DNA from: Elusimicrobiota bacterium
GTDB lineage: Bacteria > Elusimicrobiota > Elusimicrobia > UBA1565 > UBA9628
Assembly (NCBI GenBank): GCA_016209035.1
Contig: JACQWX010000037.1
Location: forward strand, 34,593 to 98,592
Length of the DNA: 64,000 nucleotides
Direction of reading: 5' to 3'
This document shows positions 195 to 30,441 of this stretch, one piece after another. Position 1 is the stretch's first letter. Each line of letters starts with the position of its first letter. The translations under genes and the position numbers were made by a program. The notes below the pieces were generated by a model. That model saw nothing but the letters and a program-made list of their open reading frames with translations. It was not told the DNA's origin and did no database searches.

Positions 195-1277
195 CTAGAA
201 CGTCAGATGCGTCGAGCGCTTGAAGGTTAGGCCCGCGTGCCTGAAGTCGTCGATGTGCTCCTTCTGGAACTGTATGCCGGCCATCTTGAAGAACTTCGGC
301 CAGCTGATGCGGTTGATCCACTCGCCCATCCGCTCGTATTTCCGGGCGTTCTTGGCCCACAGGTCGACGAGGTTCCTCACGGCCTCGGTCACCTCGGGCC
401 AGCGCGGCGGGTTGTTCGGCAGATAGGGGATCGCCAGCTTGGAGAACATCGGCTCCACGCGCGCGTTGGAGACCTTCCCTCCGACCCAGATCGAGACGCC
501 GTCGTTCAAGGGATTGTTCATCTTCATGGCCGGGCAGACCGTGAAGCAGTTCGCGCAGAACATGCACTTCTCCTCGATGACCTCGACGGACGGCAGGCCG
601 TTGACCGTCGCGGGCCGGATGGCCGCGGTCGGGCAGGAGGCGCTGGCGCTGGGGATCTCGCAGAGCTTCTTGAGGTTCGCGTGGTCGAGCTTCGGAGGCC
701 GGCGGTGGATGCCGAGGATGGCGATGTCCGAGCAGTGCACCGCGCCGCACATGTTGAGGCAGCAGGCCAGGGCGATCCGGAGCTTGCCGGGGAGCTCCCT
801 CTGCTCGAAGCGCCCGATCAGGTCGTCCATGACGGACTGGACGATGCCCGAGGCGTCGGTCGCGGCCGAGTGGCAGTGGATCCACCCCTGGGTGTGGACG
901 ATGGCGGAGATCGCGTTGCCGATGCCGCCCACGGGATGGCCGAGCTTCTTGAGGTCGGCGATCAGCGGCTCGATATTCTCGGACTTGTCGGTCAGGAACT
1001 CCACGTTGTGGCGGCTGGTGAACCGGAAGTAGCCGTCGCAGTACTTGTCGGCCAGGTCGCAGTACAGGCGGATCTTGTCGATGCTGAGCAGCCGGCCGGA
1101 GGCCGCGCGCACGGTGAAGAGCTTGTCCCCCGACTCGGCGTGGTGGACCATGACGCCGGGCTTGAGTATCTCGTGGTACTTCCACTTGCCGTAGTTCTTC
1201 TTGATCGCCGGCGGCAGGAACCTCTCGTATTGCGGAGGGCCGAAATCGGTCCGTCTTTCCGCGACTGCTTGAGTCAT
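195..1277 (-). CDS. dsrB: Dissimilatory sulfite reductase beta subunit
   Basis: 360 aa from ATG 1277 ([36 protein letters not shown]...). Carries DsrB-type cluster motifs [11 protein letters not shown] and [14 protein letters not shown], and ferredoxin insert [12 protein letters not shown]. Follows dsrA after a 47-nt gap. The 606-aa track ORF is an upstream extension overlapping dsrA in another frame. Confidence 0.93.
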
Positions 1278-1324
1278 GTTTCTACCTCTCTTGTCTTGCT
1301 GGCTATCGTTCGCCGGCGCTTTCG

Positions 1325-2530
1325 CTACTTCTTCTCTCCTTCGCCTTCTTCCTCGAAATATTCCTCGTAGAACACGTACGGGTTCTCGCGCGGATGGGCC
1401 ACCATCTCGGGCTGGGGCTCGAGCCCGATCGCTTCCAGGAAGTTGCCCATGCCGACGCGCTGGATGAACTCGCCGATCCGCTCCCTGTTCTTGCCCTCCT
1501 CGCACCAGAGGTCCCAGATCTTCGTGACGATCTCCTTGAGGTCGGCGTAGGGAGGCTCCATCTTGGTGAAGGGGATCAGCACCGACGAGAGGAGCGCGCC
1601 CTCGATGATGGGCGCCTTGGAGCCGATGAGCACGGTCGCGCCGCGGTCCTTTCCGGGGGCGAGCGCCTTGGGCATGGCGTTGATGCAGTGCATGCAGCGG
1701 CGGCAGTACTGGTTGTCGATGTCCAGCTTCTTGCCGTCCCACTTCATGCACTTGGCGGGGCAGTTGCCGATCACGTCGTTCTGGATGTCCAGCCCGCCCT
1801 TGGCGTATTCCTGGACCGCGGCCTGGTCGACCTGGATGGCGTCGCGCCAGGTGCCGATGATGGACATGTCCGCGCGGGCGATGGAGGCCACGCAGTCGTT
1901 GGGGCAGCCCGAGAACTTGAACTTGAACTTGTACGGGAACGCCGGACGGTGGATCTCGTCCTGGAAGGCCATGGTGAAGTCGTAGCAGGAGCGCATGGTG
2001 TCGTAGCAGGCCCACTCGCAGCGCGCCTTGCCGACGCAGCAGCTAGGCGTGCGGACCGCGGAGCCCGAGCCTCCCAGGTCGAAGTCGAGAGCCCCAAGCT
2101 CCGCGAAGACGGGCTCGAGATCGGCGGTCTTGGTGCCGAGCAGGATGATGTCGCCGGTCGAGCCGTGCATGTTGGTCAGGCCGGAGCCGTGCTTCTCCCA
2201 GAGGTCGCAGATCTTGCGCAGGGCGTCGGTCTTGTAGAACCAGCCGGCCGGGTGGTTGACCCGGATCGTGTGGAAATGGGAGACGCCCGGGAACTTCTCG
2301 GGGAGGTCCGAGTACCTCCCGATGACGCCGCCGCCGTAGCCCATGACCCCGACGATGCCGCCGTGCTTCCAATGGCCGATCTTCTCCTTATAAGACTGCT
2401 CCAGCTGGCCGAGGAGGTCCCTGGCCATGGGGCTCTTCTTCGCGGCCGCCTTCATCTCCTTGACGAAGCTCGGCCACTTGCCCTTCTCCAGCTCATCGAG
2501 TAACGGAGTCTGCGGCATCTGCTCAGCCAT
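1325..2530 (-). CDS. dsrA: Dissimilatory sulfite reductase alpha subunit
   Basis: 401 aa from ATG 2530 ([27 protein letters not shown]...). Has siroheme/4Fe-4S Cys motif [20 protein letters not shown], and ferredoxin-like [12 protein letters not shown]. Confidence 0.93.
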
Positions 2531-2609
2531 GGTACCCTCTATCTGTTCCGGTTTGTCGTCCCGACAAGAGCGCCGTCCGGCGCGCAAGAACATCGGCTTC
2601 GAATGGCCT

Positions 2610-2674
2610 ATTGAACCTAATATCGGCCTAATATGAATTGACCTGGGTCAACCCGCCCTATTGACCCGGGTCAG
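2610..2674 (-). promoter_or_regulatory. dsrAB upstream module: two 14-bp TTGACC-N2-GGTCAA-type palindromes plus ATTAGGTTCAAT box
   Basis: Forward-strand sites are ttgacctgggtcaa (2638-2651) and ttgacccgggtcag (2661-2674), 9 nt apart. The 12-mer attgaacctaat (2610-2621) lies 16 nt from the proximal site. The same architecture occurs at 30377-30441. Confidence 0.6.
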
Positions 2675-5426: not shown

Positions 5427-8400
5427 TCATGGCTGTCCCGGCGCCTTGGCTCTATAGTACCGCTCGAAAAGCCAGCCCAGGAAGAACTTCGCGAATTCAG
5501 GGTCGTCGGTGACCTGCTTATAGAACTTGAAGTTGGAGTCCATCATCTCCTGCAGGCGGTCGTTGACCACATGCTCGAAGGTGAGGCGGGCGTTTTCCGG
5601 CGGGTTGACTTGGACGCTGGCCGCGAGGGCGGCGTCGCCGGCCAGGCGTTCCTCCAGCTGCTCGATGAACACCCTGTCCTTCTCCGTGAAGTCGGTCCCG
5701 AACCGCTCATTGAGAAGCTTGATGATCTGCGAGAGGGTCTCAAGCTCCTCCGGCGGCATCCGGTAGCCGTCCTTCGGGCCCTGGGGCTCAAGTTCGGCGG
5801 TACCGCGCGGCAGGGGAATTCCGCCGCTTGTTTTCTGCTCGATCCGGTAGGAGTCCATGTCGATGTTCTTGCGGATCTCGACCGGCAGAACTATCTCCGG
5901 CAGCGGGAGCTTGCGGAGCAGCATCCTGCCGAAGTTGTAGAGCTTTTCCAGGTCCGTATCCACGAAGGTGATGACCTGGGACAGGAAGGCGTAAAGGCGC
6001 ACGAAGTCGTTGAGCTGGCCGCGGAAGTCCACCTTCTCGCCGTCTTCCGCGTCCCGGAAGCGGTCCACCACCGGGACCAAGGCGGAGTGCAATTTCTCCT
6101 GGGTGGCTTTCGGATCGAACCAGACCGACGCGAAGCGCTCCACGTCGTTCCTGTCGTAGAAATGAAAGTCCGCGAGCCGGTTTTGCAGGTCGTAGAGCAG
6201 ATTGGGATCGGTGCCCTCTTTGAGCAGGGTCTTGTCGTAGTAGTCGGCGAAGGCCTTCTGGATCTGGCCCGGCTCATTGGAAAAGTCCAAAACCATGGTT
6301 TCCTCTTTGCCGGGGTGGATTCGATTGAGCCGGGAGAGGGTCTGCACCGCGCCGACTCCTCCCAGCTTCTTGTCCACGTACATGGTATGGAGCAGGGGCT
6401 GGTCAAAGCCGGTCTGAAACTTGTTGGCGACGATCAGGATTCGGTACTCGTCCCGCTTGAAGGTCTCCGAGGTCTGGGACTCCGGAAAGCCGTTCATGCC
6501 TGGTTCGGTGTAGTCGGCCCCGCCGTCCTTGACCGTGCCTGAGAAGGCCACCATGGCCTTGAAAGGGTAGCCCTTCTCCTTGAGGTAACGGTCCACGGCC
6601 AGCTTGTAGCGGACCGCGTGGAGGCGGGACCGGGTGACGATCATGGCCTTGGCTTTTCCGCCGATCCGCGGCATGGACTTCTCGGCGAAGTGCTCCACCA
6701 TGATCCGGACTTTCTTGGAGATGGCGTGGTCGCTCAAATCCACGAAGGCCTTGAGCAGGTAGGTGGCCTTGGCGCGGTCGTAGCGAGGGTCGTCCTTGAT
6801 CGTCTTGAGAAGGCTCCAGTAGCTCTTGTAGGTGGTGTAGTTCTCCAGGACGTCCAGGATGAACCCCTCCTCGATGGCCTGGCGCATGGTGTAAAGGCTG
6901 AACGGCGAAAAGCGCCCGTCGGCTTGTTTCTGCCCGAAAAGTTCGAGGGTCTTGTGCTTGGGCGTGGCCGTGAAGGCGAAGGTGCTCACGTTGGGAAGGC
7001 GGCCGCGAGCCTTCATCTCGGAGGCGATCCGGTCCTCCATGTCCTCGCATCCGTCGGCGTCCTCCAGCTCCGCGTCCTCCAGCGTCCCGGCGGACAGAAC
7101 CAGCTTGAGGCTCTTGGGGCTCTCGCCCGACTGCGAGGAATGCGCCTCGTCTATGATGACGGCGAAGCGTTGCCCGGGCAGGGATTGTATGTCGCCGACG
7201 ATCTGGGGGAACTTCTGCAAGGTGGTGACGATGATGTTCTTGCCGTCCTGCAAGGCCTGCTTGAGCTGTCGGGAGGTCTGGTCGATGTTCTCGACCAACC
7301 CCAGGGTCTGCTCGAACTGGCGGACGGTGCGCTGAAGCTGGCGGTCCAGGACGCGGCGGTCCGTGATGACGATGATGGAGTCGAACACGCGCCGGTCCTT
7401 CACGTCATGCAGGGCCGATAGCTGATGGGCGAGCCATGCGATGGAGTTGGACTTCCCGCTGCCGGCGCTGTGCTGGATCAGGTATTGTTGACCCGTTCCG
7501 GTTCCCTGTGCGTCGGCCAGCAGCCGCCTCACGCAGTCAAGCTGGTGATAGCGGGGGAAGACCATGGACTTCTTTCCCGTCTTGCGGCCTTTGTCGTCCT
7601 CGTCCTCGACGACATGGACGAAGTTTTGGATGAGGTCCAGGACGCTGTCTTGCGACCAGATGCGCTCCCACAGATAGGCCGTGGAAAAGCCCCCCAGGGC
7701 CGGGGGATTGCCCGCTCCGGTTCCATTGCCGCGGTTGAAGGGCAGGAAACGGGTCTTGGGGCCTTGGAGGTGCGTGGTGAGGTAGACGAGGTCGGGGTCC
7801 ACGACAAAATGGACGAGACAGCGGCCGAAGGCGAACAAGGGCTCCCGCGGGTCGCGGTCGAACTTGTATTGGCGAATGGCGTTTTGTACGTTCTGCCCCG
7901 TCAGCGGGTTCTTGAGTTCAGCGGTGGAGATGGGCAGCCCGTTGAGGAAAATGGCGAGGTCCAGGCTGTTCTCATCTCTCTGGCTGTACTTGAGCTGGCG
8001 GACGACCGTGAAGATGTTGGCCTGGTAGAGTTTGCGTATCTCGTCGTTTAGCCCGCTGGCCGGTCGGAAGTAGGCCAGTTGGAACTTGCAGCCGTTGTTC
8101 TTGATGCCCTTGCGCAGGACCTCCAAGGTCCCGCGCGTCTGGACCTCAGAGGCCAGGCGCTTGAGCAGGTGGTCCTTGGCGTCCGCGCCGTGCTGTACTT
8201 TGAGTTTCTCCCACTCTGCGGGTTGGGTGGCGTAGATGAAGTCCATGACCGCGCCGGGGTCCAGGCACAGGCCGCGGTCGTAGTCCTCCAGCCGGCCTTT
8301 CCGGTAGCCGCCGGGAGCGCCGAGGTAGCCTGCCAGGACATCGCCGGCCGCGGAGGCTCCGTCCACGGCGGCGGCCTGGGTTTCGCCGAGTAGAATCTGT

Positions 8401-8441
8401 TCTATTGAGGCTTCGAGTTTCTTTTCGGAGATGTCCATCAT
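5427..8441 (-). CDS. hsdR: Type I restriction enzyme R subunit
   Basis: 1004 aa. N-terminal PD-(D/E)xK-like region (DLAIFLNGLPISTAELK). SF2 helicase motifs QHSAGSGKS, IIDEAHSSQ (DEAH) and FAFTATP. Confidence 0.9.
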   Translation of the reverse strand: MMDISEKKLEASIEQILLGETQAAAVDGASAAGDVLAGYLGAPGGYRKGRLEDYDRGLCLDPGAVMDFIYATQPAEWEKLKVQHGADAKDHLLKRLASEVQTRGTLEVLRKGIKNNGCKFQLAYFRPASGLNDEIRKLYQANIFTVVRQLKYSQRDENSLDLAIFLNGLPISTAELKNPLTGQNVQNAIRQYKFDRDPREPLFAFGRCLVHFVVDPDLVYLTTHLQGPKTRFLPFNRGNGTGAGNPPALGGFSTAYLWERIWSQDSVLDLIQNFVHVVEDEDDKGRKTGKKSMVFPRYHQLDCVRRLLADAQGTGTGQQYLIQHSAGSGKSNSIAWLAHQLSALHDVKDRRVFDSIIVITDRRVLDRQLQRTVRQFEQTLGLVENIDQTSRQLKQALQDGKNIIVTTLQKFPQIVGDIQSLPGQRFAVIIDEAHSSQSGESPKSLKLVLSAGTLEDAELEDADGCEDMEDRIASEMKARGRLPNVSTFAFTATPKHKTLELFGQKQADGRFSPFSLYTMRQAIEEGFILDVLENYTTYKSYWSLLKTIKDDPRYDRAKATYLLKAFVDLSDHAISKKVRIMVEHFAEKSMPRIGGKAKAMIVTRSRLHAVRYKLAVDRYLKEKGYPFKAMVAFSGTVKDGGADYTEPGMNGFPESQTSETFKRDEYRILIVANKFQTGFDQPLLHTMYVDKKLGGVGAVQTLSRLNRIHPGKEETMVLDFSNEPGQIQKAFADYYDKTLLKEGTDPNLLYDLQNRLADFHFYDRNDVERFASVWFDPKATQEKLHSALVPVVDRFRDAEDGEKVDFRGQLNDFVRLYAFLSQVITFVDTDLEKLYNFGRMLLRKLPLPEIVLPVEIRKNIDMDSYRIEQKTSGGIPLPRGTAELEPQGPKDGYRMPPEELETLSQIIKLLNERFGTDFTEKDRVFIEQLEERLAGDAALAASVQVNPPENARLTFEHVVNDRLQEMMDSNFKFYKQVTDDPEFAKFFLGWLFERYYRAKAPGQP

Positions 8442-8698
8442 GGCTTATCCTTGAAAATTTGTCGCTGGCCTTTATACTTTTCCTTGAAAGCTTTGATGGC
8501 TTGGTCAAATGCCCCGATGTTGGAAGGACCGCTGAGGATGTTGGATATTACGATGGCCTCAAACAGGTCGTTGAAGTCTTTCTGCTGCTGGTCCGCCTGG
8601 ATTTGGACCTGCTGGGATAGCTTATAGCTGCGCCAGCCCACCCACCACATGGCGACCGCGGCCACAGCCATTACCCAATCCGCCAATGTGCCCATCAT
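8438..8698 (-). CDS. Small single-pass membrane protein embedded in the type I R-M operon (unknown function)
   Basis: ATG 8698 overlaps the hsdS stop (ATGA) and the stop overlaps the hsdR start (8438-8441). 86 aa: MMGTLADWVMAVAAVAMWWVGW (TM) followed by a Q-rich linker and a lysine-rich tail. Lower G+C than its surroundings. Confidence 0.5.
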   Translation of the reverse strand: MMGTLADWVMAVAAVAMWWVGWRSYKLSQQVQIQADQQQKDFNDLFEAIVISNILSGPSNIGAFDQAIKAFKEKYKGQRQIFKDKP

Positions 8699-10065
8699 TG
8701 CCCCCTCACGTCGATTTTGCCAGTCACGGCGACCGAGATCAAGGCGGTACGATACTCCCACAAGCGCTCAACGACGGTTTCGACCTTGGAAACCATCTGG
8801 GCAATCTTCGTGGACTCGTGGTTGAGAAATTCAGCAATCGCAGACTGTTCGTCACGAGGGGGCATTGGGACTTCGAAGCTATACAGGTTGCCAACTGTAA
8901 GCTGGTTGACGGTTGAGGTGAGAAACGTCGCGGATTGATAATCAAACAGCGTGGAATTAAAGACATGGAACAAATAGTCGTTGCATTCGCTCCTGAAGAC
9001 GGTCATGAATGTGCCGAAGGATAGCCCTGCCGAACCCCCATCTATCTTTGCGCTTTTTCCAATTAGGGCGCGACTGCCACTTCTTGAACAGATAAGAACA
9101 TCGCCGACTTTGGTGATGAGCCGTTCCGGTATTTTGGTCTTAACGAATACGTTGTCCTCGAAAATAATCCGTTCGTTGAAAACATTCGAAGCCCGAAGAA
9201 CCAGGGTGCCTTCGCCTTCACCAACCACATCAGCAGGATCGTAGGTCAAGCCGATTATGGCATCTCCAACTCGCCTGAGACGCTTCACATCCCAATGTTC
9301 CGGGATCTTTCCCAACCACTCAATGCCGGAGTCCTTCATCGGCGCTTTGGGGTCGAGGCCCTTGGTGACGGCGTGGCTGATGAGGGCGGATCGCTTCTCC
9401 TCCAAGAGTTCGATGAGCCGCTCCTTCTTGGCGATGAGGGCGTCGAGCTTGGCGGTTTCGCGGTCGAGGAAGGAGACGATGGCCTTCTGCTCATCCTTCG
9501 GCGGTACCAGGAAGATGGCATTGTCGAGGGAATATTTTCCCAAGCCATAGCGTGTGATCCCTGTCGCCTCGACTCTGAATTGATGATTAATCGGAAGGGT
9601 AGCGAAGGACCTGGACAAATAGCGTCCGTCAATTATGTCAGCATTGGGCCGAATCTGTGCAAGGTGATATCCGCAAAGGACCCCTTTCAAATCCTCTGAG
9701 ACATGCGCGGGCACTGCGATATCGTCCCACTCCTCCGAGTCCTTGGTAACGAGGACGTCATCTTTTCGAAGGCTGAACTTTTGGACTTCCTCGCGTGTCG
9801 CCGTGGCGGCCATAAAATCAATGGCAGAGGTGATGCGGTCGTTATAGTAAACGTCGACATAGTTGCAGAGATCGACGGGGATCTCACCGTCAATTGGGTG
9901 TTTGTCGACGTTGCTGAATCTGCTGGAGGCGAGATGCTTCAGTCTTCGGAGTCTCCAATGATCCGGCATACGCCCCAGCCACTCAATCCCCGAATCCCTG
10001 TAGGCGGGGTAAGCCTTCCAGCGGGAACCCGCGCGAGCCGGCGCGGTAGGCGGGTTTGGGCTCAT
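8695..10065 (-). CDS. hsdS: Type I restriction-modification specificity subunit
   Basis: 456 aa with two tandem target-recognition halves. Each half ends in the conserved helical spacer (LIAKKERLIELLEEKRSALISHAVTKGL; VETVVERLWEYRTALISVAVTGKIDVR). 4-nt overlaps with both neighbours. Confidence 0.85.
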   Translation of the reverse strand: MSPNPPTAPARAGSRWKAYPAYRDSGIEWLGRMPDHWRLRRLKHLASSRFSNVDKHPIDGEIPVDLCNYVDVYYNDRITSAIDFMAATATREEVQKFSLRKDDVLVTKDSEEWDDIAVPAHVSEDLKGVLCGYHLAQIRPNADIIDGRYLSRSFATLPINHQFRVEATGITRYGLGKYSLDNAIFLVPPKDEQKAIVSFLDRETAKLDALIAKKERLIELLEEKRSALISHAVTKGLDPKAPMKDSGIEWLGKIPEHWDVKRLRRVGDAIIGLTYDPADVVGEGEGTLVLRASNVFNERIIFEDNVFVKTKIPERLITKVGDVLICSRSGSRALIGKSAKIDGGSAGLSFGTFMTVFRSECNDYLFHVFNSTLFDYQSATFLTSTVNQLTVGNLYSFEVPMPPRDEQSAIAEFLNHESTKIAQMVSKVETVVERLWEYRTALISVAVTGKIDVRGQ

Positions 10066-11165
10066 CTTGCCGGAGCCTCCAGGCTTTCCCGCGAGACCGC
10101 CAGCCGCTCCCTGGCCAGGCGGATGGCGTCATGCAGCTTCTTCTCCAGCACTTTTCGCGGCGGGAGCTCGGTCATGTACTCCGCCACCCGGATGCCGCTC
10201 TTGTCGAGCTGGAGCAGTTCCACCTCCTCGTGGTCCTTCCCGGCGCAGAGGATCAGCCCGATGGGCGCGGCCTCGCCGGAGTCATGCTCGTGCTTCTCCA
10301 GCCAGCGCAGGTAAAGCTCCATCTGTCCTTTGAACTCCGGCTTGAACTTGTCGAGCTTTAGCTCGATGGCAACTAGGCGCTTGAGCTTGCGGTGATAGAA
10401 GAGCAGGTCGAGGTAATAGTCGTTGCCGCCGATCTGTATCCGCTTCTGACGGGCGACGAACGCAAACCCTACGCCAAGCTCCAGGATGAAGGCCTCCATC
10501 TCCCGCAGGATGGCCGATTCAACATCCTTTTCCTGAAAGGCGCCCTTCAAACCTAGGAAATCCAGGAGATAGGGATCGCGAAAGACAAGGTCCGGCGTGA
10601 GCTTGTCCTCCTCCCGCAGATTCTTGAGCTCCATAGCAGCGAGCTTGGCGGGTTTCTTGGAAAGGGCGGTTCGTTCAAAGAGCATGCCGCCGATCTTCTG
10701 CCGGAGGGTCCGGACGCTCCAGCGCTCCAGGCGGCACATCTCGGCGTAGAAGTCCCGCTTGAGCTGGTCCTGGATGTAGACGATCTCCTTGAAGTGGCTC
10801 CAGCCCAATTGTCTCGACAGCGTGGAGACAATCTGAGCGTCGGGGAAGGCCTCAGCGAAGCGCATCATGTGGCGCAGCCCTTTCTCGGAGAAGCCTTCGC
10901 CGAACTCTTGGGACAATTGTCTCCCCGCCGCGGAGACAATCCTCTCGCCGTACTCGGCGCGTTTACCGCCTAGGATGTCCTGCCGGACGCGCCTGCCCAC
11001 GCTCCAATACAGGGTCGTCAACCCCGCGTTAATCGCCTGGGAAACCTGATTTCGCGCGGTATGGATCAGGGAGCGGATGTCCGTAACGAGCGTCTCGACA
11101 GTCCGCCTCGCGGGGGGACTCTCCTGCTGCGCTATAAGCTGCCTGCGGGCGGCGGATTCCTTCAT
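10062..11165 (-). CDS. YhcG/DUF1016-type PD-(D/E)xK nuclease-family protein inserted between hsdM and hsdS
   Basis: 367 aa. C-terminal core IQIGGNDYYLDLLFYHRKLKRLVAIELKLDKF is typical of this family, which is commonly found inside type I R-M loci. Confidence 0.75.
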   Translation of the reverse strand: MKESAARRQLIAQQESPPARRTVETLVTDIRSLIHTARNQVSQAINAGLTTLYWSVGRRVRQDILGGKRAEYGERIVSAAGRQLSQEFGEGFSEKGLRHMMRFAEAFPDAQIVSTLSRQLGWSHFKEIVYIQDQLKRDFYAEMCRLERWSVRTLRQKIGGMLFERTALSKKPAKLAAMELKNLREEDKLTPDLVFRDPYLLDFLGLKGAFQEKDVESAILREMEAFILELGVGFAFVARQKRIQIGGNDYYLDLLFYHRKLKRLVAIELKLDKFKPEFKGQMELYLRWLEKHEHDSGEAAPIGLILCAGKDHEEVELLQLDKSGIRVAEYMTELPPRKVLEKKLHDAIRLARERLAVSRESLEAPAR

Positions 11166-13198
11166 CTGGCCACCTCAGACAGCATGCCGAGGATGTCCTT
11201 CTCCAGGGCCTTGATGTCGGCCTCGATCTCCTCCAGGGGGCGCGGGGGCTGGTACTTGTAGAAGTAGCGGTTGAAGTTGATCTCGTAGCCGACCCTGCCG
11301 ACCCCGCCGTCCTTGTGATCCTTGATGGCCGCGTTGATCCAGGCGTCCGGGACATGGGGCGCGACCTCGCGCTTGAAGTAGGCGTTGATGTCTTCCCCAA
11401 GGGGCACGTTTTCGGTGTCCCGCAGCTCGGGGTCCGGCACGAGATTCCCCTCAATGTCGCGGCAGATCTCGGCTGTCTCGTCGCGCTCCGAAAGGGCTGA
11501 CATGATCGCCTTGCGAACAGGCGTGGACACCTTGACGCCCCTGGCTTTGGCCGCGCTGTTGAACGCAATCCAAAAGGGCCCCCGGTCCTTGAACAGGGTT
11601 TGGGGGAGAGACGCGAGCAAGGCAAGTATCTCCGTTTGTTCCTTGCGTCCCTCCGTCTCCTCGGCGGCTTTCGACGCGGGGTGCTTCTTCCTGCTCTCAG
11701 CCAAGGCAATGAACGCCTTCTCGCTCTTGAGGCGCGCGATTCGTTCCGCGCCGGCCTGGAGGTTCAGCCGGAGCGGCCGCTCGACCGTTATCTTGCGGTA
11801 GCCGAAGGATTCGCGGTCGAATATCTTGGAGTGATCCGAATCCTTGAAGGCGGAAGCAAGTTCGGCGATCTCCCGAATCCGTTCCTCCGATATCAAATGG
11901 CGCTTGTCTCCCAGGCTCTTGGGCATGGGAATCCAGAAAGATGACGCGTCAATGAGCTGGACCTTGCCCTCGCGCTTGGAGTCCTTGCGGTTGGTCAGGA
12001 CCCAAACGTAGGTGCTGATGCCGGTGTTGTAGAAAAGCTGATCAGGGAGAGCGACGATGGATTCAAGCCAATCGTTCTCAAGAATCCAGCGGCGGATATC
12101 GCTCTCGCCGCTGCCCGCGTCGCCGGTGAACAGGGGCGAGCCGTTCATCACGATGGCGATGCGGCTGCCGCCGGACTTCGCCTCCTGCATTCGGGCAAGC
12201 AGGTGCTGGAGGAACAGGAGCTGCCCGTCGCTGATCCGCGGCAGGCCCGCCCCGAAGCGGCCGGCATACCCTCTCGTGGCCTCAGCCTCGACCGCGTCCT
12301 GGTCCATCTTCCATTCCTTGCCGTAGGGCGGGTTGGTGAGGAGATAGTCGAATTTCCGGGAGGAGTGCTGATCCTTGGAGAGCGTGCTTCCGAATTTGAT
12401 GTTCTCGGCGTCCCGGCCGTCCAGGCTCTTGAGGTAGAGGTCGGATTTGCAGACTGCGAAGGTCTCGGGCTGGGATTCCTGGCCGAAGAGATGGACCTCG
12501 GCGTTCTTGTTGATCTCCAGGATCCGCTCTTTGGCGATCGTGAGCATGCCCCCAGAGCCGCAACAGGGATCGTACACGGTCTTGACGATGTGGTTCTTGC
12601 TGAGAACGTCCCTGTCCCGCGACACGATCAGGTCCACCATGAGGCGGATGACCTCGCGGGGGGTGAAGTGCTCCCCGGGATTCTCGTTCATGGCCTCGTT
12701 GAAGCGCCGGATGAGTTCCTCGAAGATGGTGCCCATCTCCAGGTTCGAGACCTTGTCCGGGTGGAGGTCGATGTTCTTGAACCGCTCGAGGACCAGGAAA
12801 AGCAGGCCGGCCTCTTCCAGCTTCGTGATCGTGTTGGCGAACTCGAACTTCTCCAGCACCTCACGCATGTTGTCGGAAAAGTTCTGAATGTAGGAGCGCA
12901 GGTTGGCGGCCAGGCTCGGCGCATCGTCGAGCAGGGTCTCAAAGTCGTACCGGGAGGTGTTGTAGAAGGCGAATCCCGATGCCTTGCAGAGCTGGGGGTA
13001 GCGGTTGGCGAGGTCCTTGGCCTTGAGCTTGGCGTTGACCGCCAAGACCTTCTGCTTCGTCGGAGCCAAGACGCAGTCCAGGCGGCGCAGGACGGTCAGG
13101 GGAAGGATCACGTCCTGGTACTTGCTGCGTTTGAAGCTGTCGCGCAGGAGCTCGGCGATGCTCCAGATAAAATTGGCATTATCGTTGAAGCTGGTCAT
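11162..13198 (-). CDS. hsdM: Type I restriction-modification N6-adenine DNA methyltransferase subunit
   Basis: 678 aa. HsdM N-terminal helical domain (NFIWSIAELLRDSFKRSKYQDVILPLTVLRRLD), motif I DPCCGSGGML, motif IV NPPYG. Confidence 0.92.
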   Translation of the reverse strand: MTSFNDNANFIWSIAELLRDSFKRSKYQDVILPLTVLRRLDCVLAPTKQKVLAVNAKLKAKDLANRYPQLCKASGFAFYNTSRYDFETLLDDAPSLAANLRSYIQNFSDNMREVLEKFEFANTITKLEEAGLLFLVLERFKNIDLHPDKVSNLEMGTIFEELIRRFNEAMNENPGEHFTPREVIRLMVDLIVSRDRDVLSKNHIVKTVYDPCCGSGGMLTIAKERILEINKNAEVHLFGQESQPETFAVCKSDLYLKSLDGRDAENIKFGSTLSKDQHSSRKFDYLLTNPPYGKEWKMDQDAVEAEATRGYAGRFGAGLPRISDGQLLFLQHLLARMQEAKSGGSRIAIVMNGSPLFTGDAGSGESDIRRWILENDWLESIVALPDQLFYNTGISTYVWVLTNRKDSKREGKVQLIDASSFWIPMPKSLGDKRHLISEERIREIAELASAFKDSDHSKIFDRESFGYRKITVERPLRLNLQAGAERIARLKSEKAFIALAESRKKHPASKAAEETEGRKEQTEILALLASLPQTLFKDRGPFWIAFNSAAKARGVKVSTPVRKAIMSALSERDETAEICRDIEGNLVPDPELRDTENVPLGEDINAYFKREVAPHVPDAWINAAIKDHKDGGVGRVGYEINFNRYFYKYQPPRPLEEIEADIKALEKDILGMLSEVAR

Positions 13199-13768: not shown

Positions 13769-15994
13769 TTAGCTTGGTGCTCCCTCCGGGCCCTTCTCGA
13801 CCGCCCGGCGGATGGGCATGGAGACCGTGAACGTGGTCCCGCTGGCCTGGTCCGGATGGTCGTGCTTCGAGACGCTCGTGAAGGAGATGCTGCCGCCGTA
13901 CTTCTTCACGATCCCGTAGCACAGCGACAGCCCCAGGCCCGTGCCCGCCCCCACCTTCTTGGTCGTGAAGAACGGGTCGAAGATCCGGGGCCGGATGCTC
14001 TCGGGGATGCCCGAGCCGGTGTCCGAAACGCTGGCGCGCACCCAATCCCCGTCGGCCCATGCCTTCAGGACGATCCTCCCCGCCTCGTTGTTCATGGCGG
14101 CGATCGAGTTGGCGATCAGGTTGAAGATCACCTGCTGGAACTCGCGGCTGTCCCCGGACACCTTGGGCAGACGCTCCGGCGCCGAGACCCTAAGCTCCAT
14201 CTTCTTGACCATCAGCGTGTTGCTGACGATGCCGGCCACGGTCTCCAGGGCGAGCTTGACGTCGACCACGTCCTCCAGGCCCTCCGTCACGCGGGCGAAT
14301 CCCAGGAGCTTGCCGACGATCCTCTTGGCGTTGGTGGCCTGCGACTCGATGGTCCTGAGGTCCTCGTGCTCCCGGGAGCCGGGCTTGAACTTCTCCAGGA
14401 GCAGGTCCGTGAACCCCAGGATCACCCCCAGGGGGTTGTTGATCTCATGGGCCACCCCGGCGGCCAGCGTCCCGATCGAGGCCAGCTTCTCGGCGTGATA
14501 GATACGCTGGTCCATCTCGAAGCCCTCGGTGACGTCGCGGGTGATGCCCAAGACCAGGCGGATCGCGCCATGATCGTCCCGGATTGGGACCAGCTTGGTG
14601 CTCAGCCGGGTCTTGCGGCCGTCCAGGTCGACCGAGTGCTCGTAGGAATCGCTGGCCTGGCGCTCCAGCACCCGGGCCATCCTGCTCCTCATGAAGGAGA
14701 CGTCCTCCGGCCGCAGGAGCTCGGCGAAGCTCCGGCCCAGGTAGGATTCTTCCTTGGCGCCCTCGGACTTCCTGGCCAGGATATTCGAGAGCATGTCCGC
14801 GAAGGGCCCGTTGAGCAGGACCACGCGCATGTCGAGGTCCAGGACATAGATCATGTCGGTGGCCTGCCCCACGACCCGCTCGTAGATCCGTTCCATGGTG
14901 TGGAAGTCCGCCTCGGTCTTCTCGACCTTCTGCTGGAGCGCCTGGGAGCCGCGGTACTGGTGGATGACGATCAGGAGCCCGAAGACGAACATCCCAGTGA
15001 TGATGGCCGCCCCGACCGCGAAATGCCGGGTGTAGATCCGGTGGACCGCGGCCGCGACCTCGCTCTTGGGCGCGACGACCGCCACCGACCAGGCCCTCCT
15101 GCCCGGAAGGGCGGGGGTCTTGACCGGGGTGAAGGCGATGAGCTTGGCCATCTCGCCTTCGATCCCCAGGTGCCAGCCGCTGACGTACTCCCCGGCGCCC
15201 TCCTCGCCGCGCAGCATCCGGTCCTTCATGATGGAGTTGATCTTGGCGAAGCTGATGTAGGGCTTCTTCTCCTTGCGGGCCTGCAAGGCGCTCTTGCCGA
15301 TGAAGTGCTCCTCGGGATGGGAAAGGAAGGTCCCCTTCTCGTCGATGGCCCAGGCGTAGCCGGTCTTGCCGGACCCGATGTGGCGGGTCACCGCTCCCAC
15401 CAGGCCCGGGACGTCAATGCGCCCGTAGAGCAAGCGGCCCGCCCTCCCGCCGGAAGCGACCTCCATGCAGGCCGTGGCAGTGACCAGGGACCTGGCGCCC
15501 TCCTTATCCTCCACCTGGAGAGGGCCCAGGATCATCTGGTCCAGACCGATCTCGCCGCATTCCCGCAGGGTCCTCCCGGGCGGACCCGGGGCCCGGCCGT
15601 CCAGGCGCGCCCACTCGCCCACGCGGCCTTGCCTGTCCATGACGCCCGCCTCGAGGAGCCCCTTGGCGCTGTTGCGCGAAAGCAGCCCCCGCATGGCCCA
15701 CGCCAAGGAAGTCCTTCCGGGATCGGCCTCCATGAAGCGATTGAGGCTCACGAGATCGAGCTCGATGTCGCGCAGGGTCCCCTCGATCTGGTAGACCGCC
15801 TGTTTGGCGAGAGAGAGCTGCTGCTGGTTGAAGTCGGCGCTGATCTGATCCCTGGCGCTGCCCGCGCTCTGGTAGACCAGCAGGAGGGCCGCCCCGATGA
15901 CGAGGAAGAAGAAGACCGAACTCCCCGCCGCCAGGTAGCGGATGTCGAGGAGGGAACGGCACGCCGCCCGCAGCCGCTCCAAGGCCGAGCTCAC
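13769..15994 (-). CDS. Sensor histidine kinase (two TM helices flanking a Cache-like periplasmic region, PAS, HisKA, HATPase)
   Basis: H-box AAGVAHEINNPLGVI, N/G boxes IFNLIANSIAAM, DTGSGIP, GTGLGLS. The probable start is GTG 15994, overlapping the upstream stop (GTGA). The track ORF extends to ATG 16054, which would overlap the upstream gene by 64 nt. Confidence 0.85.
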   Translation of the reverse strand: MSSALERLRAACRSLLDIRYLAAGSSVFFFLVIGAALLLVYQSAGSARDQISADFNQQQLSLAKQAVYQIEGTLRDIELDLVSLNRFMEADPGRTSLAWAMRGLLSRNSAKGLLEAGVMDRQGRVGEWARLDGRAPGPPGRTLRECGEIGLDQMILGPLQVEDKEGARSLVTATACMEVASGGRAGRLLYGRIDVPGLVGAVTRHIGSGKTGYAWAIDEKGTFLSHPEEHFIGKSALQARKEKKPYISFAKINSIMKDRMLRGEEGAGEYVSGWHLGIEGEMAKLIAFTPVKTPALPGRRAWSVAVVAPKSEVAAAVHRIYTRHFAVGAAIITGMFVFGLLIVIHQYRGSQALQQKVEKTEADFHTMERIYERVVGQATDMIYVLDLDMRVVLLNGPFADMLSNILARKSEGAKEESYLGRSFAELLRPEDVSFMRSRMARVLERQASDSYEHSVDLDGRKTRLSTKLVPIRDDHGAIRLVLGITRDVTEGFEMDQRIYHAEKLASIGTLAAGVAHEINNPLGVILGFTDLLLEKFKPGSREHEDLRTIESQATNAKRIVGKLLGFARVTEGLEDVVDVKLALETVAGIVSNTLMVKKMELRVSAPERLPKVSGDSREFQQVIFNLIANSIAAMNNEAGRIVLKAWADGDWVRASVSDTGSGIPESIRPRIFDPFFTTKKVGAGTGLGLSLCYGIVKKYGGSISFTSVSKHDHPDQASGTTFTVSMPIRRAVEKGPEGAPS

Positions 15995-18606
15995 GATCCG
16001 GCCTCCCCTGCCCGGTCCAGCCCCAGCTTCGCCGAGAAATCCCGGACGTACCACTCGAGGATCCTGTCGTTGCCGAGCGCCATGTCGAGCTGCTTGGTCA
16101 TGATGGCGAGCCTACCTAGCGCATGCAGCCTGCTGGCGATGTCCTCGCGGCTCTGGTAGGAGATCCTGGTGTCCAGGAAATCCCCGCGGCTTAAGCTCTC
16201 GAAGCCCAGCCTCCCCAGGAGGGTCTCGATGAGCCTGATGCGCCGCATCCGTCCGCCCAACGACGCCCCGCCCTGCTTGTACTGCATGCGGATGTAGTTC
16301 TTGCTCATCTCGGCCGCGCACAAGGCCTCGACCGTGGTGAAATGATAGCCCATGCGCAGGCTCAGCAGCATGTACTCGCGCCCAAGAAGGGCGTAGCTCT
16401 TCTCCAGGAACTCGGGCCGCCCGCCCATCACCTGGTGGGCGCCGATCACCGACATGAGGCCCTTCGCGCTGGCGGCCGGGGGCTTGGGCCAGCCCTCCTT
16501 CCTGACCCCGGCCCAGAAGGCCTTCATCGGCTCGGACCCGAGCTCACCCTCCCCCACGGATTTCTTCCCGCGGCAGGCCGCGGAAAGGTCCGGATCGAGA
16601 TAAATGATGGTGACCGGAAGCGGGATCGCGCTCTCGAGCTTCAACCCCAGCTGATCCTTCTCCTTAATATCCTCGCCCGACGAGAACATCTCCTCCATCG
16701 CCCGCTGGTGGCACAAGCGCGTGATGTCGTGGAGCGTCCGGCAGTTCCTCGGCGTGAAATCAGGGTCCGCCGGATGGACCAGGTGGAGGGGAGAGACCTT
16801 GCCCAGGACCCTCTTCGTCAAGGCGATGATGTCGTCCTCCTCGGGCGATTCGAACTCGGCTTCCCGCGCCCGGATCAGCTCCTCCTGAAGGCCGGCGTAC
16901 ACGGCGCCGCCGGTGGCGTCCACCGTGACCGGCCTACCCTCCTCGAGCCCGTTCCAGTCGAGCACCACGGTGGGGACGCGGTACTCCCGCGCCAGGGTCG
17001 CCAGGTGGCTCGCCATGCTGCCCACGGCCGTCACGATGGACTTGAGCCTTCCCATGACGGCGCTGATCTGGGGGAAGGGATGCGACACCGCCAGCACGGC
17101 GCCGTCGGGGACCCGGGCCAGCTCCTCCGGCGAGGAGGCGAAGAACAAGGGCCCCGCGCCCGCGCCGGGGCACACCGTGGTCCCTCCCGTTCGCAGAGCC
17201 TGGAGCCGGGACAAGTCGGGAAGCGAAGGGGCGGCCTTGCGCTGGAAGACCCTCAACGGACGGTTCTGAAGCAGGAACAGCCGGCCATTCCGGTCCAGGG
17301 CCCACTCGATGTCCCTGGGGCCTTCGTAGTGCCCCTCGACAGCCAAGGCCATCCGGACCAGCTCCTGGACCTGGCCCTCGCCGATCGAGAACCGTTCGAT
17401 CTCGGGCGCGGGTACCTCTTCCCGGGCTATGCCGCCCTCCGGCCGCAGCACCAGCCTGAAGGGCTTCCTGGCCGCCTTGGAGCGCTTGATGGAGAGGTCC
17501 TCGCGGGAGACCCGGAAGGAGTCGGGCGTGAGCGTGCCGTCCACCAGGTACTGGCCCTGGCCCCAGACCGCGCTCACGAGGGCGCAGCCGTCGTCGGGCG
17601 AGACCGGGTCCCTGGTGTAGACCACGCCGCTGGCGAGGGCGTCCACCATGGAGATCAGTCCCACGCCCATCGCAAGGCGGGTCTCGGAAAGCGCGTGGCT
17701 CAGGAAGTAGTAGATGGCCTTGGGCGTGAACTTGCTGGCCAGGACCTCCCGGTAGCGATCCACCACCTCCCCGGGCCCGACATTCAGGAAGGTCGCGTAC
17801 TGCCCGGCGAAACTCAGGGAGGCATCCTCGCCCAGGGCGCTCGAGCGCACGGAGAACCTCCCGGATGGGGAGCGTCGGGCCAGAGCGTCGGCGCTCGTCC
17901 GCAAGGCGCCGGCCAGGTCCTCCGGGACCGGGCTCGACAGGATCATTTCCCGTATCTCCGCGCCCGCCCTCGCCAGGTCGTCGAAGTCCCTGGCGTCGAG
18001 GGTCTGAATCCGGCCGGCGACGCGCTCGCGCAGGGCGTTGGCCTCCAGGAAGTGCTTGTAGGCCCAGGCGCTCACGGCGAAGCCCTCCGGCACCGGCAGG
18101 CCCAGCCTGGACTTCATCTCGCCTAGCCCGGCGCATTTGGCGCCCACGCTCCAGTCCCGGTCCCTGCCGAGGGACTCCAGCGGGATGACGAACTCATCCT
18201 TCTCGACGGAACGGCTCCCGGGAAGGATGCCCTCGATCTCCCTGTCGATCGCGGCCAAGCGGCCCCTGAGCACGGCGTAGTCCGCGCCTCCCAGGGCCAC
18301 CATGTCCTCGATCATGCCGGCTACGCCGCGGCGCAGGCCGTCGAGGCCGGCGCGGACGTAGTTGATGTCGAAGAAGTACTCCCCTCCCGCTTTCTCCTCC
18401 ATGTCGCTCATGGTCTTGAGCACCTGGTTGTTCCGCTCCAGCAGGCCGGTGAAATGCGCGAACTTGCGATGGAGGTCCTTCAAGGCGGAGTCCGGGTCCC
18501 GCGGGCCTCCGGCCGCGGCCAGGACTTCCTCCAGGGAATCATGCCTAGCCCTCCCGGTCGACGGCCGGCCTTGCTTCCTCCACCAGGACATCAGCCATTC
18601 CATCAT
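15991..18606 (-). CDS. PEP-synthase-like protein: ATP-grasp (PPDK_N-type) + swivel phospho-His domain, no PEP/pyruvate TIM barrel, uncharacterised C-terminal domain (paralog 1)
   Basis: 871 aa. Motifs VGAKCAGLGEMKSRLGLPVPEGF, SVRSSALGEDASLSFAGQYATFLNV and IVTAVGSMASHLATLAREYRVPTVV. The C-terminal ~300 aa align by eye only with 38622-41195 (MGYHFTTVEAL vs LGYHFNMVDVY). Confidence 0.8.
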   Translation of the reverse strand: MMEWLMSWWRKQGRPSTGRARHDSLEEVLAAAGGPRDPDSALKDLHRKFAHFTGLLERNNQVLKTMSDMEEKAGGEYFFDINYVRAGLDGLRRGVAGMIEDMVALGGADYAVLRGRLAAIDREIEGILPGSRSVEKDEFVIPLESLGRDRDWSVGAKCAGLGEMKSRLGLPVPEGFAVSAWAYKHFLEANALRERVAGRIQTLDARDFDDLARAGAEIREMILSSPVPEDLAGALRTSADALARRSPSGRFSVRSSALGEDASLSFAGQYATFLNVGPGEVVDRYREVLASKFTPKAIYYFLSHALSETRLAMGVGLISMVDALASGVVYTRDPVSPDDGCALVSAVWGQGQYLVDGTLTPDSFRVSREDLSIKRSKAARKPFRLVLRPEGGIAREEVPAPEIERFSIGEGQVQELVRMALAVEGHYEGPRDIEWALDRNGRLFLLQNRPLRVFQRKAAPSLPDLSRLQALRTGGTTVCPGAGAGPLFFASSPEELARVPDGAVLAVSHPFPQISAVMGRLKSIVTAVGSMASHLATLAREYRVPTVVLDWNGLEEGRPVTVDATGGAVYAGLQEELIRAREAEFESPEEDDIIALTKRVLGKVSPLHLVHPADPDFTPRNCRTLHDITRLCHQRAMEEMFSSGEDIKEKDQLGLKLESAIPLPVTIIYLDPDLSAACRGKKSVGEGELGSEPMKAFWAGVRKEGWPKPPAASAKGLMSVIGAHQVMGGRPEFLEKSYALLGREYMLLSLRMGYHFTTVEALCAAEMSKNYIRMQYKQGGASLGGRMRRIRLIETLLGRLGFESLSRGDFLDTRISYQSREDIASRLHALGRLAIMTKQLDMALGNDRILEWYVRDFSAKLGLDRAGEAGS

Positions 18607-24152: not shown

Positions 24153-25997
24153 TCAACGCATTCTCCGTCTCGCCCTCTCCAGGGCCTCTTTCGCCGGGGT
24201 CAAGTCGATCCCCATGTCTTGCCCCTCCTGCTTCCGGCTGTTGCGGTCAGCCTCATCCTTGCGTCGCGCACTGTCCCTCGGCTCCCTGGAGCCGCCCTCG
24301 GCACGCCTCCGCATCTCGGCCATGAGCGCCAACAGCTCGTTGATGCCCCCCGCGTCCGTCAGATGCCCGTAATACCGCAGCAAGTAGTCAGCATAGCACC
24401 AGCCCACGTCGCCGCTGGCATATCTCATGGCGAGAGCGTCGCGGAACGTTGGATCGCCGATGCGCCGGCTCAAGATGCCCAGGGCTTCGGCCGAAGGCTC
24501 CGCGATCTTCCGATCGAGACAGGTCCGGACCAGGAACAACGCGGCATGGGCCTGATCGAGGCGCTTCAAGCGGAAGTGGCACTTGACGTCCGGGGGCTTC
24601 GCATCCGCCTTCCTGAACACATGCCATCCCCCGCGGTCCACGCCATCCCAAACGAACCCATAGGTCGCGGCCAGCTTGTCCAGCGCCGCCTCGGCTTCCC
24701 TCTCTGCCTGCTCGCGCTTGCGTTCATCGTAGCGCGCCTTGCCCGCGTTGACCCAGCCAGCCTCAAGCCGCTCGCCGCCCTTGAGCTTCCGGAGCAGCTC
24801 CATGGTCAACTCGTACCAGCATGCGCCTTGGTGCGATGCGAGATCCCTCTCCATCCTGGCCATCTCGGCGTCGTAGACCGCGGGCTCGTAGAGAGCAAGC
24901 TCATCGAACACGCCCTGGGAATGGGTCATGCCATGACAGACCTGGTCCGCATAGACACCCAGCGATATCATCTGGTTGCGTCTTTGGTTCTGCGCATCCA
25001 GCTTTCTTGCGCCCTCGGCGATCTGCTTCAACGTGCGCCGCACATTCCCTTCCTTGGATACCAAATCAAAGTCAGGCCCAAAAGCACGCTGATCCGACAA
25101 CTTGTAAGGATCGAGGCCCGCCTTCAATTTCTCGTCCCATTGCTTGGCCAGCGACTCCTCTCCCGAAATCTTCTTTTTGAATTCCACAACATCTTCATCG
25201 GTGAAATCAAAAGTCGACTTGAGCGAATCGAGATGCCCCTTCCTATGCCGAACCTCCACTGCATGCTTGTTTCTCAAATCGACATCCTTCTTGAGATGCT
25301 CCTGGAAATGCTCCTTCTCGTGAGAAAGCGTGTAGGCGAGCATGCCGGGATACTTGAAGGCATCCGGGCCGATATGAACCTTCCCGTCAGGACCCGTTTC
25401 CCCGGCGCGGCCTTTGCCTTCGCCAAGGGACTCGTTATATTTCGGATCCCAAGCCGCCGTTTCGCCGATATAGCACTCCACATACCCGGGGTCAGGCGTC
25501 CCATCGGCCAACTTGTGGCATGGCGGGCCGGAAAGGACGGGCCCCGATTTCTTGGGGGGAGAAATATGGTAGACCTCCATCGCGACCTTGATCGCCTCGC
25601 TGTGAAGCCTGGTCGATTCCTCCTGGTATTGCTCGTAATCCTTTATCACACGAGCGTAGTCCGTGTAGGTCCAGGGCGAATCAAATATCTTCTTGGCATA
25701 GTCGTTTACGAGCCCATCCGAGGCTTCGTAGAGGGCCCGTTGCCACTCGGACCAGTTCTCGTATCCCTCCGGGCGCCTCATGCCGAGCCACTTGCCATCC
25801 TCGTCACGCAAGCCGAGTTTTCTCTCGAAATCTTTCTTCTGCGCGACGAGATCCTGATTCTCTTTTTTGTTCTTGTGCCTCTTGATGGCATCCAATGTCT
25901 GCTGGACGCGGTCGATCTCGCCCTTGGGAGGCCTGTAAGGCGCCGCCTCGATACGGGCCGGGCACCATGCCAGCCACAGGATCAGACCCGCTGTCAC
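24153..25997 (-). CDS. Hypothetical secreted/charged protein with an HExxH-like motif (lower G+C)
   Basis: 614-aa ORF with a GTG start overlapping the upstream stop (GTGA). Signal-peptide-like N-terminus MTAGLILWLAWCPARIEAA, and HEKEHFQEH. I recognised no family. Confidence 0.55.
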   Translation of the reverse strand: MTAGLILWLAWCPARIEAAPYRPPKGEIDRVQQTLDAIKRHKNKKENQDLVAQKKDFERKLGLRDEDGKWLGMRRPEGYENWSEWQRALYEASDGLVNDYAKKIFDSPWTYTDYARVIKDYEQYQEESTRLHSEAIKVAMEVYHISPPKKSGPVLSGPPCHKLADGTPDPGYVECYIGETAAWDPKYNESLGEGKGRAGETGPDGKVHIGPDAFKYPGMLAYTLSHEKEHFQEHLKKDVDLRNKHAVEVRHRKGHLDSLKSTFDFTDEDVVEFKKKISGEESLAKQWDEKLKAGLDPYKLSDQRAFGPDFDLVSKEGNVRRTLKQIAEGARKLDAQNQRRNQMISLGVYADQVCHGMTHSQGVFDELALYEPAVYDAEMARMERDLASHQGACWYELTMELLRKLKGGERLEAGWVNAGKARYDERKREQAEREAEAALDKLAATYGFVWDGVDRGGWHVFRKADAKPPDVKCHFRLKRLDQAHAALFLVRTCLDRKIAEPSAEALGILSRRIGDPTFRDALAMRYASGDVGWCYADYLLRYYGHLTDAGGINELLALMAEMRRRAEGGSREPRDSARRKDEADRNSRKQEGQDMGIDLTPAKEALERARRRMR

Positions 25998-27559: not shown

Positions 27560-27693
27560 GTCGGTCTCCTCGCCATGCCGGATCGGCGCGATAAGATTAG
27601 ATATTCTCGGGCGATGAAGTCAAACCCGGGCGCCTGATTCCCGTCGGGCGCAGGGCGCAGGAGAGAGAATTGCCTGGGGGAGGTTCTTTTGTT

Positions 27694-30357: not shown

Positions 30358-30376
30358 CAAGGGTCAGCCTTACCCC

Positions 30377-30441
30377 ATGACCTGCGTCAATCTAAGGGGT
30401 TGACCCGGGTCAATGGACGGAGGGCCGCAATTAGGTTCAAT
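30377..30441 (+). promoter_or_regulatory. sat upstream module: two 14-bp palindromes plus ATTAGGTTCAAT box (second copy of the dsrAB module)
   Basis: atgacctgcgtcaa (30377-30390), 9 nt, ttgacccgggtcaa (30400-30413, perfect palindrome), 16 nt, attaggttcaat (30430-30441). Confidence 0.6.

Follow-up and report, generated by a model that had tools for sequence, protein, structure and literature searches.

The control of the genes for dissimilatory sulfate reduction, dsrAB, sat and aprBA, is poorly known beyond Desulfovibrio, where the predicted regulators, Rex and HcpR, are repressors. The predicted Rex regulon of Desulfovibrio includes sat, qmo, apsAB and dsrABD (PMC4045070). HcpR, a member of the CRP/FNR family, is predicted to repress sat and apsAB by way of a CRP-like TGTGA box overlapping the -10 hexamer, and dsrAB is explicitly outside its regulon (PMC545781). 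The published consensus for HcpR1 is ATTTGACCNNGGTCAAAT, or wyTTGACnnnnGTCAArw (PMC545781, PMC1274295), and HcpR1, HcpR2 and DNR are all without the cysteine motif of FNR (PMC1274295). Joint control of sat, apr and dsr genes has already been predicted in Desulfovibrio for Rex and, in part, for HcpR (PMC4045070, PMC545781). Here, we describe two near-identical 65-bp modules in a 64-kb stretch of an Elusimicrobia genome (the window, 64,000 nucleotides in its full length), one located upstream of dsrAB and the other upstream of sat-aprBA. From comparisons of the sequence with that of related genomes, we consider it fairly probable that both modules are activator-dependent promoters under the control of one FNR-like regulator.

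Each module consists of tandem TTGACC-N2-GGTCAA boxes spaced 23 bp centre to centre, followed by 16 nucleotides (nt) and then by an identical 12-mer. These elements, their coordinates and their spacers had been described in an initial annotation of the window, and all proved exact when both regions were read again. The elements are listed below with the scores of a weight matrix built from the four boxes themselves and with box centres given relative to the predicted transcription starts.

2674-2661, minus strand: distal FNR-type box of the dsrA side, CTGACCCGGGTCAA; 21.9 bits, intergenic, predicted centre about -64.5
2651-2638, minus strand: proximal FNR-type box of the dsrA side, TTGACCCAGGTCAA; 24.6 bits, predicted centre about -41.5, with the putative -10 hexamer 22 nt further on
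2621-2610, minus strand: 12-mer of the dsrA side, ATTAGGTTCAAT, a putative -10 region composed of TAGG and then the hexamer TTCAAT at 2615-2610
30354-30367, plus strand: weak third box of the sat side, ATGACAAGGGTCAG; 8.7 bits, predicted centre about -87.5, overlapping the stop codon of the TauE-family gene
30377-30390, plus strand: distal box of the sat side, ATGACCTGCGTCAA; 19.4 bits, predicted centre about -64.5
30400-30413, plus strand: proximal box of the sat side, TTGACCCGGGTCAA; 25.2 bits, the best score in the window, predicted centre about -41.5
30430-30441, plus strand: 12-mer of the sat side, ATTAGGTTCAAT, with the putative -10 hexamer TTCAAT at 30436-30441

The spacers are equal in both modules, at 9 nt from box to box and 16 nt from the proximal box to the 12-mer; the latter spacer is fixed in length and not conserved in sequence, and the two modules have in common the pentamer GGCCG immediately 5' of the 12-mer. 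The distance from the 12-mer to the start codon is 79 nt for dsrA (ATG at 2530) versus 95 nt for sat (ATG at 30537). The third sat box ranks only 16th among approximately 64,000 positions, yet its distance from the distal sat box, on the upstream side, is exactly 23 bp. This third box had gone unmentioned in the initial annotation, as had aprBA, the match to the HcpR1 consensus, the earlier Rex and HcpR regulon predictions, and the TetR operators considered below. A local alignment also revealed a 20-nt block in the two 5' untranslated regions (5'UTRs), CGCCGGACGGCGCTCTTGTC at 2563-2582 (minus strand) and CGCGGAACGGCGGTCTCGTC at 30478-30497 (plus strand), with 16 of 20 positions matching. This block lies 27 nt (dsrA) and 36 nt (sat) past the 12-mer, and its similarity is only marginal (p ~0.02 against shuffles); a search of both 5'UTRs, including the block, returned no match to an Rfam family.

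Several measures set the modules apart from the remainder of the window. Of 320 palindromes X5-NN-rc(X5) matched for composition, the exact sequence TGACC-N2-GGTCA ranks first, with 4 matches versus a mean of 0.12, and three of these four matches fall inside the two modules. When the weight matrix was scanned over the window, a check that had been suggested with the original description of the sites, the four boxes scored between 19 and 25 bits and were all intergenic; the next-best match scored 14 bits and is intragenic. No further copy of the module is present in the rest of the window's intergenic DNA. An approximately 10-fold excess of one-mismatch boxes over dinucleotide shuffles was dismissed as an effect of codon bias, because counts of similar size are obtained with further palindromes of equal composition. 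The two 65-bp copies are identical at 47 of 65 positions, and the differences between them are unevenly distributed: none of the 30 contact positions, which we defined as box positions 2-5 and 10-14 plus the 12-mer, is mismatched, versus 18 of the 35 positions elsewhere (Fisher p = 1.8e-6). This pattern argues for selection on a protein-DNA interface and not for a recent copy.

A consensus scan of the two spacers revealed no sigma-70 consensus promoter, no conserved -35 element and no terminator in either one. The initial annotation had proposed TTCAAT, within the 12-mer, as the -10 hexamer of a promoter with class II activator geometry, and 15 promoters of this type bear this assignment out, with the register set by alignment to 13 related promoters. 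In all 15, a hexamer is found 22 nt (eight promoters) or 23 nt (seven promoters) past the proximal box. The hexamers of the relatives are TACAAT, TACTAT, TATTAT, TATACT or CATAAT, usually after TAGG, and ATTAGG-TTCAAT of the window can be aligned, position by position, to the TAGG-TACAAT found in the regulator-adjacent promoters described below, with 22 nt from box to hexamer. Furthermore, in eight loci (L284, L285, L286, L287, L289, L292, L298 and L299) the ATG or GTG of a small open reading frame (ORF) begins 6 nt past the hexamer, so that the transcript would be leaderless and the register of the hexamer is fixed. With the start placed 7 nt past the hexamer, transcription is predicted to begin near 2603 on the minus strand and near 30448 on the plus strand, giving predicted 5'UTRs of approximately 73 nt (dsrA) and 89 nt (sat) and predicted box centres at -41.5, the class II position, at -64.5 and, for sat only, at -87.5. 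The spacing of the second site, 23 bp upstream of the first, is conserved in the Elusimicrobia relatives as well. Three other readings of the core promoter were dropped. A sigma-54 element (GG-N10-GC) in the sat spacer is not present on the dsrA side; the TTGACC half-site, taken as a -35 element, has no -10 hexamer 16-18 nt downstream; and TAGGTT gave way to TTCAAT as the -10 hexamer on account of the register set by the leaderless relatives.

A candidate for the regulator is found in the same phylum. Boxes almost identical to those of the window, TTGACCCAGGTCAA-9 nt-TTGACCCGGGTCAT, are located in an Elusimicrobia locus (L265/L284) 27 nt past a gene of the CRP/FNR family, as placed by gene calls that take into account GC content at third codon positions. 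The predicted product of 237 amino acids (aa) contains the domains cNMP_binding (9e-17), HTH_Crp_2 (6e-15) and Crp. Orthologs with 59-88% identity were found only in metagenome-assembled genomes (MAGs) of Elusimicrobia, and the clade comprises at least 225 protein clusters at E <= 1e-30, every named one of which is from Elusimicrobia. Of 17 loci, 11 have a TTGAY-N4-RTCAA box no more than 150 nt past the stop codon of the regulator gene (binomial p = 2.8e-17, with a background of 0.09 boxes per kb), and all 11 of these box-bearing loci have a recognizable second box at +23 bp; L298 has the same promoter type, but at a distance of 685 nt from the regulator gene. The relatives use the half-sites TTGAT and TTGAC interchangeably. 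This adjacency agrees with the earlier assignment of the sites, which had been made from their layout, to a CRP/FNR-type regulator.

The cysteines C11-x2-C14-x5-C20 plus C63, and the recognition helix L-T-I-E-T-T-V-R-L-L, are invariant in 16 orthologs of this regulator. In an alignment to the product of E. coli fnr, C11, C14 and C20 of the clade correspond to C20, C23 and C29 of FNR, and E199 and R203 correspond to E209 and R213; S212 of FNR is replaced by Val (ETTVR), giving a helix whose residues would fit the TTGAC and TTGAT boxes. A search of the N-terminal 80 residues of the clade regulator against PDB did not retrieve FNR. These comparisons lead us to classify the clade as FNR-like, and as neither HcpR nor an FNR ortholog.

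Next to the clade regulator there is a conserved gene, a short ORF (55-109 aa) that is leaderless in most cases. Its product has a signal-like N terminus (MIELIL...) and contains the repeat (K/R)-P-C-V-(F/W)-P-N-x-C-G one to four times. The gene was observed at L265:5677-5865, L286:3818-4015, L295:3877-4107 and L301:3181-3510, and also in L285, L287, L289, L292, L298 and L299. The small ORF of L265 has no match to a Pfam family, and nothing similar is present in the window; the encoded peptide may be secreted and either carry modified cysteines or bind metal. In six regulator-adjacent loci (L284, L289, L291, L295, L296 and L301) an extra box, TTGA-N6-TCA, is located 13 bp 5' of box 1 and overlaps it by one base. 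This overlap would not permit joint occupancy and thus hints at competing binding registers. The extra box is not present in the two modules of the window. Arrays of three to five boxes with a 23-bp period were seen at L201 and L248 (both Prevotella), L166 (Bacillota), L174 and L236, in groups that also include Odoribacteraceae and Cytophagales.

In the mechanism that we favour for the two modules, a dimeric regulator of the CRP/FNR family would bind the boxes 23 bp apart, with the proximal dimer, at -41.5, covering the position of the missing -35 element and contacting RNA polymerase directly, as a class II activator. The role of the sites at -64.5 and, for sat, at -87.5 would be to make occupancy cooperative or to adjust the response. 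The regulator would be encoded outside the window and is most likely an ortholog of the Elusimicrobia-specific FNR-like clade. By analogy with FNR, it might carry an iron-sulfur cluster labile to oxygen or nitric oxide (NO) and bind DNA only when this cluster is intact, so that the genes for ATP sulfurylase, APS reductase and sulfite reductase would be turned on together under anoxia. We infer activation, the presence and identity of the regulator in the source genome, and the signal that is sensed. In its fullest form, the proposal is that an FNR-like redox or oxygen sensor of the Elusimicrobia's own, with a non-canonical fourth cysteine ligand and bound as two to three phased dimers at 23-bp intervals (-41.5, -64.5 and -87.5), has been recruited to the promoters of dsrAB and sat-aprBA in a sulfate-respiring member of the phylum and switches these genes on as a unit at oxygen loss; we put this forward tentatively, and hold it to be somewhat less than an even chance.

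The distribution of the module among related loci is mixed. Tandem boxes are present upstream of dsrA in two Elusimicrobia loci, at a distance to the gene similar to that in the window: L001 has two boxes 22 bp apart, and L007 has ATGACCGGGGTCAA-9 nt-TTGATCTAGATCAA, then 17 nt, then ATTGGGTAGAAT. Conservation does not extend to the dsrA locus of the MAG JBDREN01 (L004), which is without boxes upstream of dsrA although this MAG has the regulator (L291), or to approximately 160 dsrA and sat loci, mostly of Zixibacteria and Ignavibacteria, in which the module was not found. The latter absence implies that inheritance of the dsr or sat genes did not bring the module with it, and the two negatives taken together make the proposed membership of dsrAB in the regulon lineage-specific. 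The exact 42-nt module has no match in the genome contig collection, and a search of metagenome contigs for the proximal box plus the 12-mer returned only four matches, all of which were rejected as low-GC chance occurrences without the left half-site.

The lack of boxes in L004 and in the approximately 160 other loci weighs against activation by an FNR-like regulator, as do several further observations. No relative of the window's DsrA exceeds 84% identity, and the relatives are too distant for fine-scale footprinting. In L007, the proximal box TTGATCTAGATCAA is centred in a perfect, terminator-like 32-bp palindrome that is followed by ATTTTG (L007:2868-2935); this palindrome could act as terminator and binding site alike. 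When the window was searched in six frames with a profile of the clade, the regulator gene was not found, in agreement with the initial annotation, which had stated that no CRP/FNR protein with a helix-turn-helix domain is encoded there; the search recovered only a 155-aa cNMP-binding protein without such a domain. In the candidate regulator, the column of FNR C122 is occupied by Ser, and the invariant fourth cysteine is C63 instead; additionally, the NCBIfam Fnr model (PRK11161), aligned over residues 10-235, scores 65 bits versus a cut-off of 228. Because the fourth cysteine is displaced from the C122 position and the Fnr score is under its cut-off, we refer to the iron-sulfur cluster as putative. 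The -10 hexamer TTCAAT has T in place of the nearly invariant A at -11, a feature that, in combination with the lack of a conserved -35 element, is compatible with activator dependence. Finally, tandem sites of the pattern TGAC-N4-GTCAA-N9-TTGAC-N4-GTCAA occur in at least 118 genome loci; their neighbour is a divergent TetR gene in Ruegeria (L172), in Bradyrhizobium (L169) and in a MAG of Acidobacteriota (L163), and a CRP-family gene in one unclassified MAG. The same boxes are TetR operators elsewhere, and the shape of the site alone therefore does not identify the family of the regulator. We favour the CRP/FNR family because the boxes adjoin the FNR-like gene in the window's own phylum.

The widespread tandem pattern, and its position beside TetR genes in the three loci named above, would be accounted for if a non-CRP regulator, such as a TetR-family repressor bound as a pair of dimers, used the boxes. 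The boxes of the window are located 107-144 nt upstream of two unlinked operons with no TetR gene nearby, nor is one found near the Elusimicrobia boxes, which are tied instead to the FNR-like gene and lie upstream of the -10 region; we regard control by such a repressor as improbable. We assign a comparably low probability to an HcpR-type CRP/FNR protein that responds to nitrite or NO without an iron-sulfur motif and would tie sulfate reduction to nitrosative stress. The core of the boxes equals the HcpR1 consensus and the HcpR regulon of Desulfovibrio includes sat and apsAB (PMC545781, PMC1274295), but dsrAB is outside that regulon and the sites there overlap the -10 hexamer. Moreover, the only regulator found beside such boxes in Elusimicrobia has the C-x2-C-x5-C motif that is missing in HcpR, and neither of the HcpR core targets hcp and frdX was seen, hcp being absent among the approximately 60 ORFs scanned in the 64-kb window.

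A repressive role for the same FNR-like or CRP-family protein, with dimers at -41.5, -64.5 and -87.5 blocking polymerase or with the upstream sites tuning expression down, is unlikely in our estimation, if somewhat more plausible than a change of regulator. In E. coli, extra upstream FNR sites at promoters such as ndh and yfiD can down-regulate transcription, and many of the regulator-adjacent loci have the overlapping box 13 bp 5' of box 1. The predicted repression of sat and apsAB by HcpR in Desulfovibrio (PMC545781) offers a precedent. Repression is harder to reconcile with boxes that are clear of both the -10 hexamer and the predicted start, or with promoters that, having no usable -35 element and a weak -10 hexamer, should be poor unaided; the distance of 22-23 nt from box to hexamer, fixed in 15 of 15 promoters, is expected of a contact with polymerase and not of simple occlusion. 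Chance, or the duplication of a promoter cassette with no shared regulation, is very improbable. The identical spacings, the marginal 5'UTR similarity (p ~0.02) and the common GGCCG are compatible with common descent of the two copies, but all mismatches are confined to positions outside the contacts, and the same architecture precedes other genes in independent Elusimicrobia genomes.

The genes that activation by an FNR-like regulator would place under joint control, and other sulfate-reduction genes of the window, are as follows.

1325-2530, minus strand: dsrA; NCBIfam TIGR02064, 596 bits (cut-off 393)
about 195-1300, minus strand, in the frame of the ORF 195-2015: dsrB; NCBIfam TIGR02066, 483 bits (cut-off 342)
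directly upstream of dsrA: SulP permease gene, by family search
24153-19412, minus strand: qmoC, qmoA and qmoB, by family search
29242-30357: TauE-family gene directly preceding sat, by family search
30537-31754, plus strand: sat; NCBIfam sulfate adenylyltransferase, 486 bits, above the cut-off
31801-32256, plus strand: aprB; NCBIfam, 194 bits, above the cut-off
32299-34167, plus strand: aprA; NCBIfam, 908 bits, above the cut-off

On the minus strand, dsrA and dsrB (195-2530) are predicted to form an operon driven by the first module. The gaps between sat and aprB (46 nt) and between aprB and aprA (42 nt) are short and neither contains a box in the weight-matrix scan, for which reason the second module probably drives aprBA too, with sat-aprBA as an operon (30537-34167). 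The same scan of the window found no boxes upstream of the qmo genes or of the ATP synthase genes. The qmo genes run C-A-B and are preceded by two large co-oriented ORFs (24153-25997 and 25994-27112) with no Pfam or NCBIfam match. The window belongs to Elusimicrobiota: its AtpD protein reaches 87% identity to proteins from Elusimicrobia MAGs, nearly all named best matches are from that phylum, and the best named match of DsrA is from Elusimicrobia as well.

Other features of the neighbourhood were noted. The 155-aa cNMP-binding-only protein (44771-45235, minus strand) is followed by a YeiH-family membrane protein ("putative sulfate exporter"), the pair spanning 43455-45235 on the minus strand. 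Four proteins with the cytidylate-kinase-like domain PF13189 are encoded amid the sulfate-reduction and signalling genes, at 27670-29235 (plus), 42006-42845 (plus), 55124-56791 (minus) and 59026-60432 (minus); in some of them the domain is joined to CBS, BON or receiver domains, and one is directly upstream of the TauE-sat pair. PPDK_N and PEP-utilizer domains are found in two large proteins (15991-18606, minus, and 38622-41195, plus), each encoded beside genes for a histidine kinase and a receiver-only response regulator; these proteins may act in phosphotransfer signalling and not as enzymes of metabolism. Between the SulP-dsrAB block and the upstream signalling genes is a type I restriction-modification system (hsdM, hsdS and hsdR, with a YhcG-type nuclease gene inserted; 5427-13198, minus strand).

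If the proposed regulation is correct, the pathway from sulfate activation through sulfite reduction would be under the control of one FNR-like activator in an uncultured phylum. To our knowledge, no sulfate reducer has been described in which the loss of oxygen switches on dissimilatory sulfate reduction as a unit. Sulfate respiration would then be conditional on a redox or oxygen signal, which would suit groundwater organisms that live at oxic-anoxic boundaries. The pairing of a candidate regulator with its DNA sites, together with the grammar of the promoter, lends itself to tests in vitro or in E. coli that require no cultivation of the organism, and the motif may help to predict the activity of sulfate-reducing Elusimicrobia in metatranscriptomes.

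The modules resemble, and depart from, four other types of regulatory site. The tandem TetR operators of Rhodobacteraceae, Bradyrhizobium and Acidobacteriota have the same boxes and the same 9-nt gap, but they are located near start codons beside a divergent TetR gene, which is true neither of the window nor of the Elusimicrobia loci. The core of the window boxes is identical to that of the HcpR1 consensus, TTGACCnnGGTCAA, whereas the window boxes lack the AT-rich flanks that the published consensus has, and the regulator tied to the boxes in Elusimicrobia carries the FNR cysteine motif, unlike HcpR. The Rex regulon provides the parallel of one regulator predicted to act over sat, qmo, apsAB and dsrABD together (PMC4045070). 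Rex differs in belonging to another family and in being an NADH-sensing repressor, and the window's qmo genes are without boxes; its operator, TTGTGAA-N6-TTCACAA, from which the motif had been distinguished at the outset, has no match in the window at up to 3 mismatches. There is also a likeness to the class II promoters of E. coli FNR (TTGAT-N4-ATCAA near -41.5), with which the modules share a 14-bp TTGA-N6-TCAA site at a predicted -41.5 and the lack of a -35 element, and with whose regulator the candidate shares the N-terminal C-x2-C-x5-C motif and the Glu and Arg of the recognition helix. In contrast to the E. coli system, the half-site of the window is TTGACC, a second and sometimes a third site is present at a fixed distance of 23 bp, the candidate regulator has its fourth cysteine at position 63, Val in place of Ser212 and only 23-26% identity to FNR, and the targets are genes of dissimilatory sulfate reduction. 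What is new with respect to all of these systems is the regulator clade with its altered set of cysteines, the tandem or triple sites at a fixed 23-bp spacing, the predicted activating geometry, and dsrAB as a candidate target in Elusimicrobia.

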